Assembly (NCBI RefSeq): GCF_007109405.1
Contig: NZ_VJOY01000005.1
Location: 103,921-127,920 of the forward strand
Length of the DNA stretch: 24,000 bases
Direction: 5' to 3'
From: Pseudomonas mangiferae
GTDB lineage: Bacteria; Pseudomonadota; Gammaproteobacteria; Pseudomonadales; Pseudomonadaceae
The notes under the pieces were generated by a model, which was not told the origin of the DNA, did no database searches, and saw only the letters and a list, made by a program, of their open reading frames with translations. The translations under genes were made by a program, and so were the position numbers. Of this stretch, positions 15,610 through 21,399 are shown piece by piece. Position 1 is the stretch's first letter. Each line of letters starts with the position of its first letter.

Positions 15610-17613
15610 ATGAGTGCGCCGTCGACCCCGGAGGCCGCGACGCCCCGCATGAACCCGCCGGTGTTCTACAGCTCGGCGGCGGTCATCCTGCTGTTCGGCC
15701 TGGTGGTGATGGGCGCGCCCCAGCGCGCCGGCGACTGGCTGCTGCGGGCCCAGACCTGGGCCGCCGACAGCGTCGGCTGGTACTACCTGCTGGCGATGAC
15801 CCTGTACTTGGTGTTCGTGGTGGTCACCGCCCTGTCCGGCTATGGCCGGATCAAGCTGGGGGCCGACCACGACGAGCCGGAGTTCAGCTACCTGTCCTGG
15901 GCCGGCATGCTGTTCGCCGCCGGGATCAGCATCACCCTGTTCTTCTTCTGCGTTTCCGAGCCCCTGACCCACTTCGCCCAGCCTCCCCAGGGCGAGGGCG
16001 GCAGCCGCGAGGCGGCGCGCCAGGCGATGCAGCTGCTGTTCCTGCACTGGGGCCTGCACGGCTGGGGCGTATTCGCCCTGGTGGCCATGGCGCTGGCCTA
16101 CTTCGCCTACCGCCACAATCTGCCCCTGGCCCTGCGCTCGGCCCTCTACCCGCTGATCGGCAAGCGCATCGACGGCCCCCTGGGCTACGCGGTGGACGCC
16201 TTCGGGATAATCGCCACGGTCTTCGGCCTGGGCGCCGACATGGGCTTCGGCGTACTGCACCTGAACGCCGGCCTCGACTACCTCGTCGGCATCCCCCACA
16301 GCGCCTGGGTGCAGGCCACGCTGATCGCGCTGATGATGGGTGCGGCGATCCTGGTGGCGGTGTCCGGGGTGGAAAAGGGCGTGCGCCTGATGTCCGACCT
16401 GAACATGCTGCTGGCCTGCGGGCTGCTGCTGTTCGTGCTATTCGCCGGCCCCACCCAGCATCTGCTCAACACCCTGATCCAGAACCTCGGGGACTACCTG
16501 GGCGCACTGCCCACCAAGAGCTTCGACCTCTACGCCTACGACGAGCCCTCCGACTGGCTGGGCGGCTGGACGGTGTTCTACTGGGCCTGGTGGATCGCCT
16601 GGGCGCCCTTCGTCGGGCTGTTCATCGCGCGCATCTCCCGCGGCCGGACGATCCGCGAGTTCGTCTTCGGCGTGCTGTTCATCCCCCTCGGCTTCACCCT
16701 GGCGTGGATGTCCATCTTCGGTAACAGCGCCCTGGACCAGGTGATTGGCCATGGCTTCGGCGACCTGGCGCGGGTCGCCGTGGAAGAGCCGGCCATGGCC
16801 ATCTACCGGCTGCTGGAAACCTACCCCTGGAGCCGGGCGGTGATCGGCACCACGGTGTTCGTCAGCTTCGTGTTCTTCGTCACCTCGGCGGATTCCGGCA
16901 CCGTGGTGCTGTCCACCCTCTCCGCCCGCGGCGGCAGCGTCGACGAGGACGGGCCGAAGTGGCTGCGGGTGTTCTGGGGTGTCACCACCGCCCTGGTCAC
17001 CAGCGGGTTGCTGTTCGCCGGCAGCATCGACGCGCTGAAATCGGCGGTGGTGCTCACCTCCCTGCCGTTCTCGCTGATCCTGCTGCTGATGATGTGGGGC
17101 CTGCACAAGGCCTTCTACCTGGAGTCCCAGCGCCAGCGCGCGCGGCTGCATTCGCCGATGCCGGTGACCGGCCGCTCCAGCCGCCACGGCGGCGGCTGGC
17201 GCCAGCGCCTGGGCCAGGCGGTGCACTTCCCGTCCCGGGACGAGGTATACCGCTTCATGGACAGCCGCGTGCGCCCGGCGATGGAGGACGTGGCGGCGCA
17301 ATTCCGCGAGAAGGGCCTGAGCGTCGACACCGACCTGGACGCCAACACCGCCAGCCTCAGCCTGGAGATCGGCCACGGCGAGGAACACCCGTTCCTCTAC
17401 CGGGTGATCATGCGCGGCTACTTCACCCCGTCCTTCGCCATCGCCGGCCTGCAGGCGCGCAACCTCAACAATCGCCGCTACTACCGCGCGGAGGTGCACC
17501 TGGCCGAGGGCAGCCAGGACTACGACCTGGTGGGCTACAGCCGGGAACAGGTGATCAACGACATCCTCGACCAGTACGAGCGGCACCTGCAGTTCCTGCA
17601 CCTGGTGCGTTGA
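15610..17613 (+). CDS. betT: BCCT-family choline/betaine transporter, BetT-like with long cytoplasmic C-terminal extension
   Basis: The BCCT signature WTVFYWAWWIAWAPFVGLFIARISRGRTIREF is present. The protein has 12 TM-type hydrophobic segments and a hydrophilic tail of about 150 aa, as in BetT. No in-frame start exists upstream of ATG 15610, since TGA lies at 15532. ATG 15649 is an alternative start. The symbol rests on family resemblance plus the upstream operator, not on a search. Confidence 0.85.
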   Translation: MSAPSTPEAATPRMNPPVFYSSAAVILLFGLVVMGAPQRAGDWLLRAQTWAADSVGWYYLLAMTLYLVFVVVTALSGYGRIKLGADHDEPEFSYLSWAGMLFAAGISITLFFFCVSEPLTHFAQPPQGEGGSREAARQAMQLLFLHWGLHGWGVFALVAMALAYFAYRHNLPLALRSALYPLIGKRIDGPLGYAVDAFGIIATVFGLGADMGFGVLHLNAGLDYLVGIPHSAWVQATLIALMMGAAILVAVSGVEKGVRLMSDLNMLLACGLLLFVLFAGPTQHLLNTLIQNLGDYLGALPTKSFDLYAYDEPSDWLGGWTVFYWAWWIAWAPFVGLFIARISRGRTIREFVFGVLFIPLGFTLAWMSIFGNSALDQVIGHGFGDLARVAVEEPAMAIYRLLETYPWSRAVIGTTVFVSFVFFVTSADSGTVVLSTLSARGGSVDEDGPKWLRVFWGVTTALVTSGLLFAGSIDALKSAVVLTSLPFSLILLLMMWGLHKAFYLESQRQRARLHSPMPVTGRSSRHGGGWRQRLGQAVHFPSRDEVYRFMDSRVRPAMEDVAAQFREKGLSVDTDLDANTASLSLEIGHGEEHPFLYRVIMRGYFTPSFAIAGLQARNLNNRRYYRAEVHLAEGSQDYDLVGYSREQVINDILDQYERHLQFLHLVR

Positions 17614-17621
17614 GGCCGGGG

Positions 17622-17654
17622 GGGGACGCGAGCAGGCGCCCTTCCCCTCGTTTT
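17622..17654 (+). terminator. Weak candidate intrinsic terminator after the BCCT gene
   Basis: GGGGA-CGC (17622-17629) can pair with GCG (17636-17638) and TCCCC (17643-17647). The pairing has a 6-nt loop and a 4-nt bulge and is followed by TCGTTTT (17648-17654). The stem is imperfect, so this is tentative. Confidence 0.3.
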
Positions 17655-17748
17655 CCGGGGGCTCGCCGCGTTCGAACTGTGCGTGACACCACAGGATCAT
17701 TCGCGCTTCTCCAGCATGCTGGCGCGTCCATGGCAAAGGGAATTCATC

Positions 17749-18534
17749 ATGCTGACGTTCACACGCAATACACGGGACGCCGACCCCGTCACCGGAACGG
17801 TCGACCTGGTCATCGGCAACAAACTGACGGTGAAGCTGAATGGCCTGGGGCCCGACAAGAAACATTACCAGGTCACCAGCGACAGCCCGTGCATCGACGT
17901 GAAACAGAAAGCGGACGAACGCTTCCAGGAACAGACGATCCGCTTCGAGGCCAGAATGGCCTGTCAGGGCGCCCGCATCACGGCGCTCAGTGGCACAGGT
18001 GAGAAATTCCTGACAGGGCTGACGTTTAATGTCGTGCCAAGGCTGGAGCTTCCACCCGTGAATACGGATGAGGGTGCGCTTGCACGGGTATTGTTGGCCG
18101 AATCCATAACCCCGGACGACCAAGAATTTCCTGGTGGCGAAGCCTCACTTACATCGATGCGCCTAATACAACAGGTACTCCTAAACAGATTAGGCTTTCC
18201 TGATATCAGCGTCTTCAATCGGCCAAGCGCTCGCACTATTACTGCACTCATCATGGCAGGCCTGGGAAATGAAGTTAAAGGTTTCGGGGCCTATCCAAAT
18301 ATTGAGGCCAAACAAGCCAGACTTATCGCGAATATACTTACTATCGGAAACGATGCCAGTGACAGACGTTACGCACTGTATCGAGATCATATTAAAAGGG
18401 CACTGGATGTCGTCACTGGCACGGTACCGCGCCTGGAGGGTGATTACTACGGATGGAGAACCAAAGAATCCTCTCACCCGGGCGGTGCCTATGAACAGCC
18501 CTACAATATCGCCGGCCAGACTTTTATAAACTAA
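17749..18534 (+). CDS. Hypothetical two-domain protein: N-terminal beta-rich domain plus C-terminal SleB/CwlJ (Hydrolase_2)-like cell-wall hydrolase-type domain; candidate antibacterial effector
   Basis: I prefer ATG 17749, with AAGGGA at 17736-17741 and a 7-nt spacer. The track start 17683 is a GTG. There is no signal peptide. The C-terminal half has three motifs in the family order. LARVLLAES corresponds to LARxxxGEA with the catalytic Glu. MRLIQQVLLNRL corresponds to VAxVILNRV. The terminal IAGQTFIN corresponds to IGxHxFY. The resemblance is at motif level only. Confidence 0.6.
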   Translation: MLTFTRNTRDADPVTGTVDLVIGNKLTVKLNGLGPDKKHYQVTSDSPCIDVKQKADERFQEQTIRFEARMACQGARITALSGTGEKFLTGLTFNVVPRLELPPVNTDEGALARVLLAESITPDDQEFPGGEASLTSMRLIQQVLLNRLGFPDISVFNRPSARTITALIMAGLGNEVKGFGAYPNIEAKQARLIANILTIGNDASDRRYALYRDHIKRALDVVTGTVPRLEGDYYGWRTKESSHPGGAYEQPYNIAGQTFIN

Positions 18535-18568
18535 GCCGCTCTTTTACAGAGAGATACAGGAAGACAAA

Positions 18569-19108
18569 ATGATGTCACGCGCTCTTTATCTTCTAGCATT
18601 ATCAGCGTGTTTATTGGGCATTAGCCATATCCCCATCGCTCACTCCAAAGAAAAATTCGGGCCCACTATATTCGAGGGACAAGTTTCACGTTTCGATGCA
18701 AGCCAGGCTCCACTTTTCCTGGAGCCTCTATACGAACTGCAATACCTGATCGTGAGCATGGGGAAAAATCAAATACTCAATCACTTCTGCATGGTCGGCT
18801 ATCGGTGGCCGGACGGCCATCAACGGGTAGCGGTGTACTGGCCGGAGGGACGGACGATCTATCGCTGGAATGGCCGGCGTGACAAGCCTGACCGATACAG
18901 CCGCTATGCCTCCACATTGTTCATGTCGCCCAGCATCGATCTCGACCACAACGTAGTGGAGCGCCAGGAAGACATGGGCATGGCCACCTACCTGCGATCG
19001 TCCGTGGGCGGGACGATCGCGGACTGCAAGGCGCACGGAACCTGGTACCGCGTGGAGCCCTTCCAGCCGCCGAAGGACGAAGACAACGATGAAGAAGGAT
19101 GGGAGTGA
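18569..19108 (+). CDS. Exported/lipoprotein partner of the upstream hydrolase-like gene; candidate periplasmic immunity protein
   Basis: AGGAAG (18558-18563) lies 5 nt before ATG 18569, and the gene starts 34 nt after the upstream stop. The N-terminus MMSRALYLLALSAC carries a lipobox-like L-S-A-C. Alternatively, signal peptidase I could cleave after IAHS. The tail is acidic (KDEDNDEEGWE). No family recognised. Confidence 0.6.
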   Translation: MMSRALYLLALSACLLGISHIPIAHSKEKFGPTIFEGQVSRFDASQAPLFLEPLYELQYLIVSMGKNQILNHFCMVGYRWPDGHQRVAVYWPEGRTIYRWNGRRDKPDRYSRYASTLFMSPSIDLDHNVVERQEDMGMATYLRSSVGGTIADCKAHGTWYRVEPFQPPKDEDNDEEGWE

Positions 19109-19148
19109 CGCAGGCTAGTTAGCGCCATCAGGTGCGTGGATAGGGTGA

Positions 19149-19619
19149 TTAGCGACAGTCGAACCGTCCACGCCAGCCTGCTGGATGGTCGCCTCGCCAC
19201 ATTGTTCCAACGCAAGTCTCACGATGATCGTCTAAGCGTCGACCCAGCTTCAGCAAGCCGCTTCCGTATTCGCAGACCAGCCATTTTCCGTCAGGGTAAT
19301 CCCCTTCAAATGACCAGGTAGAGGAAGCATCATCGGCATCAGGTCCGTCAGCATCCTGAGGTTTGAGCGCTCCGCCATGCTCAGGCGGACCATCGTATAC
19401 AGCGATGCTTTCTAATACCAATTGCGTGGGAATAGAAACCAACCTTGTTTCAGCAGGTAAATCTGCAGCCTTTATTTCAGCCGATTGAATCGGCAGCGTG
19501 AATGGGCATTCGAATTTTTCGCTTTCGGCCGTTTCCCGCGCATGAGCTTCCCCACAAAAAATAAGCAATATTAGTAGCGGTAATTTTCTCAAAAAATTAT
19601 TCAATGATTGAATATGCAT
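19149..19619 (-). CDS. Exported partner of the papain-fold gene; candidate periplasmic immunity protein
   Basis: Starting at ATG 19619 gives MHIQSLNNFLRKLPLLILLIFCGEAHA/RE, a signal peptide, and overlaps the upstream gene by 23 nt. An alternative TTG at 19592 gives MRKLPLLILLIFCGEAHA with no overlap. The mature protein has four Cys (ECPF, LVCEY, ETCVG, FDCR), consistent with periplasmic disulfides. The longer track ORF (to 19805) runs inside the upstream gene. Confidence 0.55.
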   Translation of the reverse strand: MHIQSLNNFLRKLPLLILLIFCGEAHARETAESEKFECPFTLPIQSAEIKAADLPAETRLVSIPTQLVLESIAVYDGPPEHGGALKPQDADGPDADDASSTWSFEGDYPDGKWLVCEYGSGLLKLGRRLDDHRETCVGTMWRGDHPAGWRGRFDCR

Positions 19620-19992
19620 CGGCATTATTGCTCGGATCATTATATCCACCTTTACTATTTTTACCCTTTCTACGGATGTATCTTTTGGAAACGAAAGGCT
19701 TTCTCTTGTCATCCTTCCACTGATCCATAATCCATATGCCATTGGCATCTTTTGAAAGAAAGAATGCAGCATGATTACCCGTAGAGTGGTTAGAGTAAAC
19801 GCCATTACTGAATGTGGCTATCGCCGTTCCCTTGTGAATTATTTTGTTCTCGTCTTCAAATACAGATTTTCCTTCATGCCAAAAAGCCGTATTAGGTATA
19901 TTTGTATAATGCTGAAGAAGTGCTACGCATTGCTTGGAGCCAACTTTGCTTGTGTTCTCCAACCCGTCTGCTTCTGGATAAATATAGGGCAT
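19597..19992 (-). CDS. Small (131 aa) papain-fold (NlpC/P60/CHAP-like) Cys-His hydrolase, BPSL0067/Tae2-like; candidate peptidoglycan amidase effector
   Basis: The order Cys (GSKQCVALLQHY), His (TGNHAAFFL), polar residue (IMDQW) is typical of papain-fold amidases. There is no signal peptide. The size and motifs match my recollection of the 'BPSL0067 family' and the Tae2 T6SS amidases. This is unverified. Confidence 0.65.
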   Translation of the reverse strand: MPYIYPEADGLENTSKVGSKQCVALLQHYTNIPNTAFWHEGKSVFEDENKIIHKGTAIATFSNGVYSNHSTGNHAAFFLSKDANGIWIMDQWKDDKRKPFVSKRYIRRKGKNSKGGYNDPSNNADAYSIIE

Positions 19993-20286
19993 AAAATAGC
20001 TGCTCGAATTTTTAATGAATAGTAAATTTTCAGAAAAATTTTGAACATGGTCTGATTCACATTTTCAACAGATCAATAGAGAGTTCGGCAGAGAACTGCG
20101 CCATCCAGTTAAGATTTTTATGCATGCGGGCATTGAATCAGCTGTTCCGATTGCTTCGATCTGACAAAGCAGCTGTCGTCTGGCCACATTGACCACGCCA
20201 CCCCTCATTCCCAGCCATCGACCGCGCTGAACTCTGCTGGCGGCCCATTGCCCACTTCCTTACCCATCGGAAAGAGGAGACAGGTT

Positions 20287-21399
20287 GTGAGCAACCCAGG
20301 CACGCAAGGCAAGGTGCGCTACGCCGTGGTCGGAGGCGGCTGGATATCCCAGGCGGCGTTCATGCCCGGCGTCGGCCAGACCGAGAATTCCGTGATGACC
20401 GCCCTGGTCACCGGCGACCCGCGCAAGGCCGACGAATTGGCCGGGCGCTATGGCCTGAAAAGTTATGCCTACGAGGACTACGAGAACCTGCTGGGCTCCG
20501 GGGAGATCGACGCGGTGTACATCGCCACGCCGAACTTCCTGCACCGCCAGTTCGTGCTGCCGGCGCTGAAGGCCGGCATCCACGTGTTGCTGGAGAAGCC
20601 CGCCGAAGCCGGCGAGGCGGCGGCGCGGGAGATCTTCGAGGCGACCAAGGCGTCCCGCGCCAAGCTGATGGTCGCCTACCGCCTGCACCACGAGCCAGGC
20701 ACCCTGGAGATGATCGAGCGGGTACGCGCCCGGGAGTTCGGCGACCCACGGCTGTTCACCTCCACCTTCTCCCAAAAGGTAGACCCGTCCAACCACCGCG
20801 CCCGCAACGGCTTCTGGGCCGGCCCGGTGGCGGATATGGGGCCCTACCCGCTGAACGCCGTGCGCAACCTGTTCGGTGCCGAGCCCATCGAGGTGAGCGC
20901 CGTAGGCGTGAAAACCCCGGGCCTGGGCTTCGATTTCCACGACAGCGTCACCGTTACCCTGCGCTTCCCCGAGGAACGCCTGGCCACCTTCACCGTGAGC
21001 TACAGCGTGCCGGGCAGCGAGCGCTTCCAGCTGATCGGCAGCGAGGGGGAGATCGAGGCGTCGCCCTGTTTCGGTTTCGGCCCGGGTACGGCGATCACCT
21101 ACCGCACCACCCGCGGCGAGCAGCAGGAGGAACGCCGCCAGGCGGTGCTGGACCAGTTCGCCGGCGAGACCGCGTATTTCTCCGACTGCATCCTCAACGA
21201 CCGCCAGCCGGAAGCCGATGCCGAGGAAGGCTGGCTGGACGTGCGGGTGATCGCCGCGGTGGAGCGCGCCCTGGAGAGCGGCCAATCCCAGCGGCTGGAG
21301 CCCTACGACCGCAGCAAGCGCCCTGGCCGCGACCAGGCCCGCCAGTACCCCCAGGGCGAGGTGCCGTCGTTCATCGACGCCGAGCCGCCCACCGGCTGA
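20287..21399 (+). CDS. Gfo/Idh/MocA-family NAD(P)-dependent oxidoreductase
   Basis: GTG 20287 is preceded by GAGGAG (20275-20280). The Rossmann N-terminus is VRYAVVGGGWISQAAF, followed by the family EKP motif (HVLLEKPAE) and a C-terminal alpha/beta domain. The track's 20248 start adds 13 codons without an RBS. Confidence 0.85.
   Translation: MSNPGTQGKVRYAVVGGGWISQAAFMPGVGQTENSVMTALVTGDPRKADELAGRYGLKSYAYEDYENLLGSGEIDAVYIATPNFLHRQFVLPALKAGIHVLLEKPAEAGEAAAREIFEATKASRAKLMVAYRLHHEPGTLEMIERVRAREFGDPRLFTSTFSQKVDPSNHRARNGFWAGPVADMGPYPLNAVRNLFGAEPIEVSAVGVKTPGLGFDFHDSVTVTLRFPEERLATFTVSYSVPGSERFQLIGSEGEIEASPCFGFGPGTAITYRTTRGEQQEERRQAVLDQFAGETAYFSDCILNDRQPEADAEEGWLDVRVIAAVERALESGQSQRLEPYDRSKRPGRDQARQYPQGEVPSFIDAEPPTG

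Follow-up and report, generated by a model that had tools for sequence, protein, structure and literature searches.

The junction between a BetT-type transporter gene and a Gfo/Idh/MocA oxidoreductase gene in Pseudomonas mangiferae holds four genes of low G+C content, and raises the question of whether these genes form a single islet of antibacterial weapons or separate modules with separate histories. The locus lies in a stretch of 24,000 nt (hereafter the window) from contig NZ_VJOY01000005.1, positions 103,921–127,920, of the assembly GCF_007109405.1, and all coordinates count from the start of the window. Database proteins that match exactly also identify the species as P. mangiferae. The four genes are arranged as two convergent bicistrons: A–B on the forward strand, with a gap of 34 nt, and tae2–tai2 on the reverse strand, with an overlap of 23 nt. 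A first-pass annotation, made from the sequence alone, had correctly described this arrangement, and had taken the whole segment as one 2.6-kb islet of orphan effector–immunity pairs. The locus probably represents two independent antibacterial effector–immunity modules, which meet tail to tail within a single intergenic hot spot of P. mangiferae.

The history of the two pairs is different. tae2–tai2 is a recent, strain-level insertion that was acquired horizontally, and A–B is an older resident of the junction in this clade. Comparators were found by scanning species-representative genomes with the Gfo protein, by homologue look-up, and by tblastn and blastn. A–B is present in all three syntenic relatives (L006, from Pseudomonas sp. 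RIT-PI-AD, L092, and L001), and tae2–tai2 in none of them, including L092, which is a near-conspecific strain. Because A–B is conserved at the same junction in these relatives, it is not a fresh insertion. Empty-site comparison thus upholds the idea of an insertion for the cassette at 19112–20186, but not for the four genes as a unit, since conservation at the junction extends to A–B only. The effector–immunity reading of the first-pass annotation stands for Tae2/Tai2 on the basis of family matches and, for A–B, is supported by comparative evidence as a toxin–immunity pair, whereas its delivery through a type VI secretion system (T6SS) is a prediction.

The tae2–tai2 pair

tae2 (19597..19992, reverse strand) encodes a protein of 131 aa that belongs to the BPSL0067 family of papain-like Cys-His-Asp peptidoglycan amidases. 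The protein matches positions 2–115 of the 115 in the NCBIfam profile NF033857 (BPSL0067_fam) with an E-value of 2.4e-48 (163.2 bits, for a cut-off of 27), and its residues 2–131 match the structure PDB 6WIN, named 'Type 6 secretion amidase effector 2', with an E-value of 3.5e-41. C22, H74, and D90 are conserved in 100% of 121 sequences, including 6WIN, and the hydrophilic N-terminus bears no leader. The first genes of both pairs had been described in the first-pass annotation as leaderless and similar to peptidoglycan enzymes, a description that holds, and the 'papain-fold Cys/His enzyme' that was recognised there turned out to be this member of the Tae2 family.

The second gene, tai2 (19149..19619, reverse strand), encodes a periplasmic immunity protein of 156 aa from the STY0301 family, with a match to the NCBIfam profile NF042415 (STY0301_fam) of 64.4 bits (E-value 9.6e-18, for a cut-off of 22) when its start is trimmed, and an E-value of 2.6e-17 when it is not. 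Its N-terminus, MHIQSLNNFLRKLPLLILLIFCGEAHA followed by RE, was judged by eye to be a Sec signal, with a leader ending in AHA before the RE. As suggested by its location in Salmonella pathogenicity island 6 (SPI-6) and its adjacency to Tae2, the STY0301 family probably corresponds to the published Tai2.

Tae2, whose founding member is BTH_I0068 from Burkholderia thailandensis, is a T6SS amidase that cleaves DD-crosslinks and is neutralised by the immunity protein Tai2; its target is the cross-link between meso-diaminopimelate and D-Ala (mDAP–D-Ala), and it resides in the variable region VR1 of SPI-6, as in S. Typhi (PMC10469887; PMC8926400). By homology to the characterised Tae2, the protein of the window would be exported by a T6SS into the periplasm of a neighbouring Gram-negative cell, where it would cut the peptidoglycan cross-links, presumably at mDAP–D-Ala. 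Tai2 would be exported through Sec to the periplasm of the producer, and would neutralise the incoming Tae2 there.

L086 (Massilia) and L087, two unrelated genomes, also have genes of the STY0301 family downstream of their Tae2 homologues, which form orphan bicistrons amid housekeeping genes there, as in the window. In L088, the Tae2 homologue directly follows TssA-TssM-TagF-TssB-TssC-Hcp. For this family, then, it is normal to lie in an orphan location, which does not turn the delivery route into a mystery. The previous description of the right-hand pair as an orphan whose delivery route was unknown overstated its novelty, given that Tae2 is an established T6SS substrate and that orphan bicistrons are common.

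The tae2–tai2 pair is an ordinary member of the Tae2/Tai2 kind, which was already known, and adds one more orphan copy to it. It shares with the other members the full-length matches well above curated cut-offs, the preserved Cys-His-Asp residues, the leaderless effector of ~130 aa, and the overlapping downstream immunity gene with a signal peptide; it differs in being located outside a T6SS cluster (as in L086 and L087), within a 1.08-kb cassette beside another toxin–immunity pair. The closest relative of Tae2 is 70% identical to it, with known members at ~55–70%, and no donor can be named for the pair because even this closest relative is so distant. The AT-rich region upstream of tae2 (19993..20186, reverse strand, 39% G+C) is presumed from its composition to hold the promoter; scans for promoters and terminators returned nothing above shuffle level.

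The Tae2 homologue of L088 is followed by a partner that does not belong to the STY0301 family (L088:9342-10958), a protein of 179 aa with a weak lipoprotein match, which suggests an alternative immunity family for Tae2. This locus also holds an unannotated gene of 200 aa between hcp and tae2.

The A–B pair

Gene A (17749..18534, forward strand) starts with an ATG at 17749, preceded by an AAGGGA Shine-Dalgarno sequence, and encodes a leaderless protein of 261 aa, a candidate SleB-like peptidoglycan-cleaving toxin that is a 100% match to a hypothetical protein of 261 aa from P. mangiferae. Gene B (18569..19108, forward strand) encodes a candidate periplasmic immunity protein of 179 aa, and directly follows A wherever B occurs, over a range of A identities from 100% down to ~36% (L091). 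Judging from the leaderless A beside an exported B and from the way in which both genes vary between genomes, A and B likely constitute a toxin–immunity pair.

The clearest case is the comparison between the window and L092. Both loci are nearly identical in Gfo (99.2% aa identity) and in the N-terminal part of A (99.0%), but the identity drops to 70.6% in the C-terminal part of A and to 56.8% in residues 1–120 of B, before rising to 87.7% in the tail of B. At the nucleotide level, identity is 95–100% at 17734–18034, ~0.5–0.7 at 18094–18930, and 0.98 at 18994. The hypervariable block (18090..18930), which comprises the toxin domain of A and residues ~1–120 of B, is swapped with respect to L092 and coincides with the left lobe of low G+C, which is bracketed by the breakpoints at ~18090 and ~18930. 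The left breakpoint is located on the most conserved linker motif of the A family, LELPP.NTDEG.LAR.LLAE. L092 and L006 diverge evenly over all these parts (81–93%), which indicates that the exchanged allele is the one carried by the window.

Such joint variation of a predicted toxin domain and the core of its neighbour is what a polymorphic toxin and its cognate immunity protein classically display. The toxin domain of A and the core of B are thus expected to be swapped as a unit by recombination at the linker, and near-identical strains could thereby carry alleles that are not mutually immune. The occurrence of two A–B alleles in an otherwise 97–99% identical background offers a natural experiment on the specificity between toxin and immunity protein.

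Other loci exhibit further traits of such systems. In L005:2014-5230 and L004:10001-13217, flanked by genes for a GntR regulator and for an alcohol dehydrogenase, a paralogue of A (48% identical) is followed by three tandem paralogues of B (45, 40, and 36%), all of them with signal peptides and with ~44–46% G+C. The gene calls of this region differ between the assemblies L004 and L005, and the same sample also carries the Gfo-linked A–B pair of L001, that is, two such loci in one genome. In L006:8414-9188, A is frameshifted at approximately residue 146 and split into two reading frames (the database protein P0009 is a fragment of 159 aa), while the adjacent B is intact, a pattern of decayed toxin and retained immunity.

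Like the polymorphic toxin systems described by Zhang et al. in 2012 (PMC3482391), A–B combines a conserved N-terminal part, a variable C-terminal toxin, and a downstream immunity gene that varies with it, and it also shares with them the tandem immunity arrays and the appearance of the A-type domain as the C-terminal tip of Rhs proteins. Unlike them, A is short (261 aa) and is without a trafficking module of the Rhs, CdiA, LXG, or PAAR type. The catalogue of polymorphic toxin domains from 2012 contains no entry of the SleB/Hydrolase_2 type (PMC3482391).

The two-domain structure of A is well defined by its AlphaFold2 model, obtained from an alignment of 87 sequences (predicted local distance difference test, pLDDT, 96.2; predicted template modelling score, pTM, 0.90), which replaced a poor model (pLDDT 62) from six sequences. 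Residues ~3–96 form a beta-sandwich, residues 107–260 are mainly helical, and residues 1–11 are ordered, with a pLDDT of ~92. The N-terminal domain (residues 1–100; 17749..18048) is an immunoglobulin (Ig)-like, or Big-like, domain, as indicated by Foldseek matches to Ig, filamin, and BIG2 domains and by profile matches to S-layer Ig domains and lambda gpV, and it represents a candidate domain for delivery or receptor binding. In relatives, the C-terminal domain also stands alone or after one to three Ig-like repeats, as in P0069 and P0105, where the repeats are in tandem. In P0147 and P0151, an A-type domain follows the canonical core-end motif of Rhs proteins, and constitutes their C-terminal toxin tip.

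The family is small and rare. A word-based search found seven homologues of A and four of B in 5.8e9 proteins, whereas an exhaustive profile search of 1.84e9 representatives returned 362 clusters for the A family, and a metagenome scan with the A-family alignment just two short loci. As a single sequence, A has no match in Pfam (E-value up to 1), NCBIfam, or PDB, and B has none by sequence in the same three databases. A–B is a compact family of ~260 + 180 aa that lacks database annotation and that comparative evidence marks as a real toxin–immunity system.

The C-terminal domain of A (residues 107–261; 18067..18531) is predicted to be a remote relative of the SleB/CwlJ (Hydrolase_2) enzymes, with E118 (codon at 18100–18102) as the putative catalytic Glu. 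Hydrolase_2 is the most recurrent weak Pfam match in the A family, found in three of 87 members with a best E-value of 0.011. For a direct comparison, a Hydrolase_2 profile was built from 10 sequences, namely the SleB catalytic domain from PDB 4F55 and nine diverse SleB-type hydrolases from phages. hhalign aligned residues 107–261 of A with positions 4–125 of the 126 in this profile over 120 columns, with an E-value of 4.6e-5 and a score of 36.0, whereas 40 column-shuffled templates scored 16.2 at most and the reversed template 14.4. With the A profile set against a single SleB sequence, hhalign gave a non-significant result (probability 0.4%). The alignment of both profiles places E118 on the catalytic Glu of SleB, and lines up the NR, GQF, DP, and FY motifs; E118, N146, and R147 are invariant in the A family. 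The 'SleB/CwlJ Hydrolase_2-like' assignment of the first-pass annotation therefore survives a profile–profile test with shuffle controls. Compared to SleB/CwlJ proteins (PF07486; PDB 4F55 and 4FET), A maintains the same order of motifs (LA..hhh.E, NR[LV], GQF, DP...Y, and G..FY), but it has an extra helical insert of ~40 residues, falls below the Pfam threshold, and is neither a spore nor a phage protein; further differences are its pairing with a predicted periplasmic partner and its polymorphism between strains.

The B protein carries a Sec signal in residues ~1–26, with a predicted cleavage between AHS and KE, and all its homologues share two conserved Cys and a Sec leader whose cleavage site is of the AxA type (signal peptides judged by eye). 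The exported partners had been proposed to bear a signal peptide or a lipobox: signal peptides are found on both B and Tai2, but a lipobox in B was rejected, given that its Cys14 is not conserved.

Several relatives depart from the arrangement of the window. P0143 and P0124 are single-domain members of the A family with their own N-terminal signal peptide. In P0137 and P0150 (and also in P0153, P0158, P0160, P0138, and P0139), the A-type domain is N-terminal and is followed by 200–300 residues with no Pfam match; in P0137 and P0150, the two sequences of this type that were read, the extension is rich in Pro and Ala, with the conserved motif RLPPSGATAFDP(R/G)LTPAWAG at its end. Extensions of this type may be targeting domains for a different secretion system. 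In P0148 (249 aa), an N-terminal half resembling B (signal peptide and HFCIAGYR..WAEGRKIILW) is joined to a C-terminal part resembling A (profile positions 132–263); it may stem from a genuine fusion, a frameshift, or an assembly error, and in any case it links the A and B families in a distant lineage. The most distant homologues of A (~30% identity; L089:2116-3156 and L102:2168-3208) are followed by an open reading frame of 346 aa, with no Pfam match, in the place of the B-type gene of 165–180 aa.

Proposed mechanism and delivery of A

In the proposed mechanism, the Ig-like N-terminal domain of A would play a role in loading, delivery, or uptake, and the SleB/CwlJ-like domain would cleave the glycan strand of peptidoglycan through Glu118, as a lytic transglycosylase or a muramidase does. 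B is predicted to be the cognate periplasmic immunity protein, and would bind and inhibit A. The specificity for the glycan strand is likewise a prediction from sequence. With no recognisable relatives, B could represent a new inhibitor fold for lytic transglycosylases.

The Tge1-3/Tgi and pesticin/Pim pairs follow the same logic, in which the glycan strand is cleaved in the periplasm of the rival and the producer is protected by a periplasmic immunity protein. Their folds are different (lysozyme-like in these proteins, SleB-like in A), and no sequence relationship between them and A–B was detected. A closer precedent is the pair T6EC3/T6IC3 from Acinetobacter rudis CIP 110305, where a T6SS effector fused to PAAR holds a SleB-like C-terminal domain, the substitution E108Q abolishes toxicity, and its immunity protein, T6IC3, carries a natural signal peptide (Geller et al. 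2024, Mol Syst Biol, PMC11148199). T6EC3 is the only SleB-like effector of this kind that has been tested, and exhibits an unusual double-membrane phenotype (PMC11148199). Both T6EC3 and A have a SleB-like domain that is missed by Pfam, a Glu near the start of this domain (the essential E108 and the invariant E118, respectively), a periplasmic action (predicted in the case of A), and an adjacent immunity partner with a signal peptide. However, A has an Ig-like N-terminus and no PAAR, and is likened to T6EC3 by its published description and not by sequence; a PAAR fusion that could link both proteins was sought among the listed members of the A family, and none was found. A–B would thus work like the glycan-cleaving pairs (Tge/Tgi and T6EC3/T6IC3), and its behaviour is that of a polymorphic toxin system. 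The SleB-like class of antibacterial effectors, which has been recognised very recently, would be extended by the toxin domain of A, and A–B would become a member of the T6EC3 family should T6EC3 and A turn out to be homologous in sequence.

Since A carries an Ig-like domain in the place of a known T6SS marker, the question of its delivery arises. Delivery by a T6SS is favoured because of the relatives borne by Rhs proteins, the PAAR-borne SleB-like precedent of T6EC3, the logic of a leaderless toxin with a periplasmic immunity protein, and the adjoining cassette of a genuine T6SS effector. P. mangiferae itself presumably has a T6SS; a literature search for its secretion systems found nothing. 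T6SS delivery of A is put forward as a tentative route, to which somewhat less than an even chance is given.

Several results weigh against A being an active SleB-like toxin delivered by a T6SS. Neither vgrG, hcp, PAAR, adaptor, nor T6SS core genes were found within 10 kb of A in eight contexts, and among the 150 A-family members listed there is no fusion to PAAR, VgrG, or Hcp, but only to Rhs. Pfam Hydrolase_2 (PF07486) gives no match to A at an E-value up to 1, so that its gathering threshold is not reached, and hhalign assigns a probability of only 68.5% to the alignment with the Hydrolase_2 profile, as corresponds to a remote similarity. Foldseek did not return SleB for A, as the Ig domain dominated the ranking. 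Part of the A family, as suggested by the members with signal peptides, may consist of enzymes exported through Sec rather than of leaderless injected toxins. Finally, A might be impaired in the window, where it ends in AGQTFIN and a stop codon (18520–18534), and lacks the Y-T-L and the tail of 13–19 residues found in L092, L001, and L006 (ending in GQTFYKLNPAFLERYGKTR). In these three relatives, the stop codon of A overlaps or abuts the start of B, compared to the 34-nt gap of the window. The shortened end may be due to a small deletion or to a premature stop.

Among the routes that dispense with the T6SS, A–B may represent a new class of interbacterial toxin targeting peptidoglycan, where the Ig-like domain is a carrier that brings a SleB-type lytic transglycosylase into the periplasm of the rival by a route not described for this fold (candidates are bacteriocin import mediated by a receptor and another contact-dependent system), B has a novel periplasmic immunity fold, and the conserved linker is the recombination joint. 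This proposal is regarded as doubtful.

A serious rival, if also an unlikely one, is that A–B is a toxin–immunity pair in which A is a released bacteriocin of the pesticin or colicin M type, with an Ig domain that binds an outer-membrane receptor, a SleB-like domain that is imported, and B as the periplasmic immunity protein, like Pim or Cmi; in a variant, A would be cargo of tailocins or extracellular contractile injection systems, or would travel in outer-membrane vesicles. The bacteriocins pesticin and colicin M both target peptidoglycan and have immunity proteins (Pim and Cmi, respectively) in the periplasm, and the periplasmic location predicted for B fits this idea equally well. The modular architecture, with a receptor-like N-terminal domain (repeated in tandem in P0069 and P0105) and an enzymatic C-terminal domain, is also in agreement with this idea, as are the lack of T6SS genes beside A in the eight contexts and the lack of PAAR, VgrG, or Hcp in A or its listed relatives, where no marker of the MIX or FIX type was detected either. 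However, no lysis or release gene accompanies A–B, and A has no recognisable TonB box or disordered N-terminal translocation region, its residues 1–11 being ordered. Besides, A-type toxin domains are carried by Rhs proteins, which are typically T6SS cargo, the SleB-like T6EC3 is fused to PAAR, and a genuine T6SS effector cassette lies immediately beside A–B.

It is very unlikely that A–B is not a weapon but an accessory cell-wall remodelling enzyme that acts on its own cell, together with a regulator or inhibitor in the periplasm. Hydrolases of the SleB/CwlJ type normally act on the wall of the cell that makes them, many of the phage versions are endolysins, and some members of the A family have their own signal peptides; furthermore, A–B is stable at one chromosomal junction in four related genomes. 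Contrary to this expectation, A lacks an export signal although the substrate presumed for it lies in the periplasm, and A–B is extremely rare and patchy (the seven and four close homologues mentioned above), with an atypical composition in every host. The enzyme domain and the partner are hyper-diverged between near-conspecific strains whose flanks are 97–99% identical, and the tandem arrays of the partner, the Rhs fusions, and the decayed A beside an intact B in L006 are hallmarks of a conflict system.

Composition and history of the junction

As noted in the first-pass annotation, a segment of low G+C lies between the BetT-like and Gfo genes, which sliding-window G+C, line counts, and Pfam/NCBIfam matches of the flanking genes corroborated. 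In windows of 200 nt, G+C is 0.64–0.75 in the flanks, 0.44–0.52 at 18000–18800, and 0.37–0.43 at 19400–20200, and a stretch of ~62% at 18800–19200 splits the trough into two lobes. The 24-kb window has 19 sixty-base lines with less than 50% G+C, all of which fall in 18121–20160, including those with 47%, 43%, 25% (line 19561), and 23% (line 19981), and the minimum elsewhere is 53%. G+C at third codon positions (GC3) is 0.96 in BetT and 0.90 in Gfo, compared to 0.59 in A, 0.66 in B, 0.42 in Tai2, and 0.37 in Tae2.

The strain-specific Tae2/Tai2 cassette (19112..20186, 1.08 kb, G+C 0.445) starts 3 nt after the stop codon of B and replaces a G+C-rich spacer. According to blastn, its position is occupied by 137 bp in L006, 13 bp in L001, and 310 bp of 66% G+C in L092. 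The gene order is CreD-CreC-CreB, HD-GYP, acyltransferase, BetT, A, B, Gfo, and RluA in L006; BCCT, A, B, Gfo, RluA, and abhydrolase in L092, whose right flank is 96.7% identical to that of the window over 3.8 kb; and DHFR (dihydrofolate reductase), A, B, Gfo, and RluA in L001.

These data leave a slim chance to the idea that the entire 2.6-kb segment is one recent islet, or that tae2–tai2 is ancestral and was lost from the relatives by deletion. The four genes are contiguous and all of foreign composition, and there are no mobility genes to date the events. Nevertheless, A–B occurs without tae2–tai2 at the BetT/Gfo junction in L006 and L092, and beside Gfo-RluA in L001, and the GC3 of Tae2/Tai2 (0.37–0.42) is far less adapted to the host than that of A/B (0.59–0.66). 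With regard to an ancestral tae2–tai2, the relatives have a G+C-rich native spacer, with stretches that look similar by eye in L092 and L006, and three independent clean deletions are less parsimonious than one insertion.

That A is a remnant of phage or prophage lysis, with an endolysin joined to an Ig-like tail or decoration domain and B as a phage accessory protein, is hardly credible: Hydrolase_2 is frequent in phage endolysins (490 phage records match SleB) and BIG2/Ig-like domains are common in phage structural proteins, but tblastn of A against 50,697 phage records and 72,556 plasmids gave no match, a result that speaks against an origin from plasmids or phages, no phage gene was found in the eight contexts, and B is predicted to be a soluble periplasmic protein that co-varies with the enzymatic domain of A.

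As for the insertion of the cassette next to a resident A–B pair, neither convincing terminal or flanking repeats (only short repeats at chance level) nor mobility genes that would point to a mechanism were found around it. In agreement with the first-pass annotation, the genes of the window include no integrase, transposase, or T6SS gene, core genes included, and the window holds no tRNA and no convincing flanking repeat. A direct repeat of 17 nt, identical at 15 of 17 positions, is formed by GTCGCCTCGCCACATTG at 19188–19204, inside the 3' end of tai2, and GTCGTCTGGCCACATTG at 20175–20191, at the right boundary of the cassette. This repeat is probably due to chance, and could otherwise have been left by the recombination event through which the cassette was inserted.

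The left flank is a host core gene for a BetT-type choline/betaine transporter of the BCCT family (15610..17613, forward strand; Pfam BCCT, E-value 2.7e-183; NCBIfam BetT, 1.5e-248), with 92.5% aa identity to the syntenic gene of L006. The rest of the window comprises ordinary chromosomal genes, which encode an extracytoplasmic function (ECF) sigma factor with a TonB-dependent receptor, PepSY_TM, a glutathione S-transferase (GST), CreBCD, an HD-GYP protein, an acyltransferase, an RluA-type pseudouridine synthase, and an alpha/beta hydrolase.

The right flank is the Gfo/Idh/MocA oxidoreductase gene (20248..21399, forward strand), which is host-type in its GC3, is syntenic in L001, L006, and L092, and matches Pfam GFO_IDH_MocA with an E-value of 8.6e-22, in addition to C-terminal domains. 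This gene is rare in Pseudomonas among the loci L007–L085 and, beyond a few pseudomonads, its nearest relatives (50–62% identity) are mainly from Alphaproteobacteria, such as Jiella, Methylobacterium, Roseomonas, and Acetobacteraceae. In L001, the A-B-Gfo-RluA block has a different left neighbour, DHFR, and this block may have its own history of horizontal transfer despite its host-like G+C.

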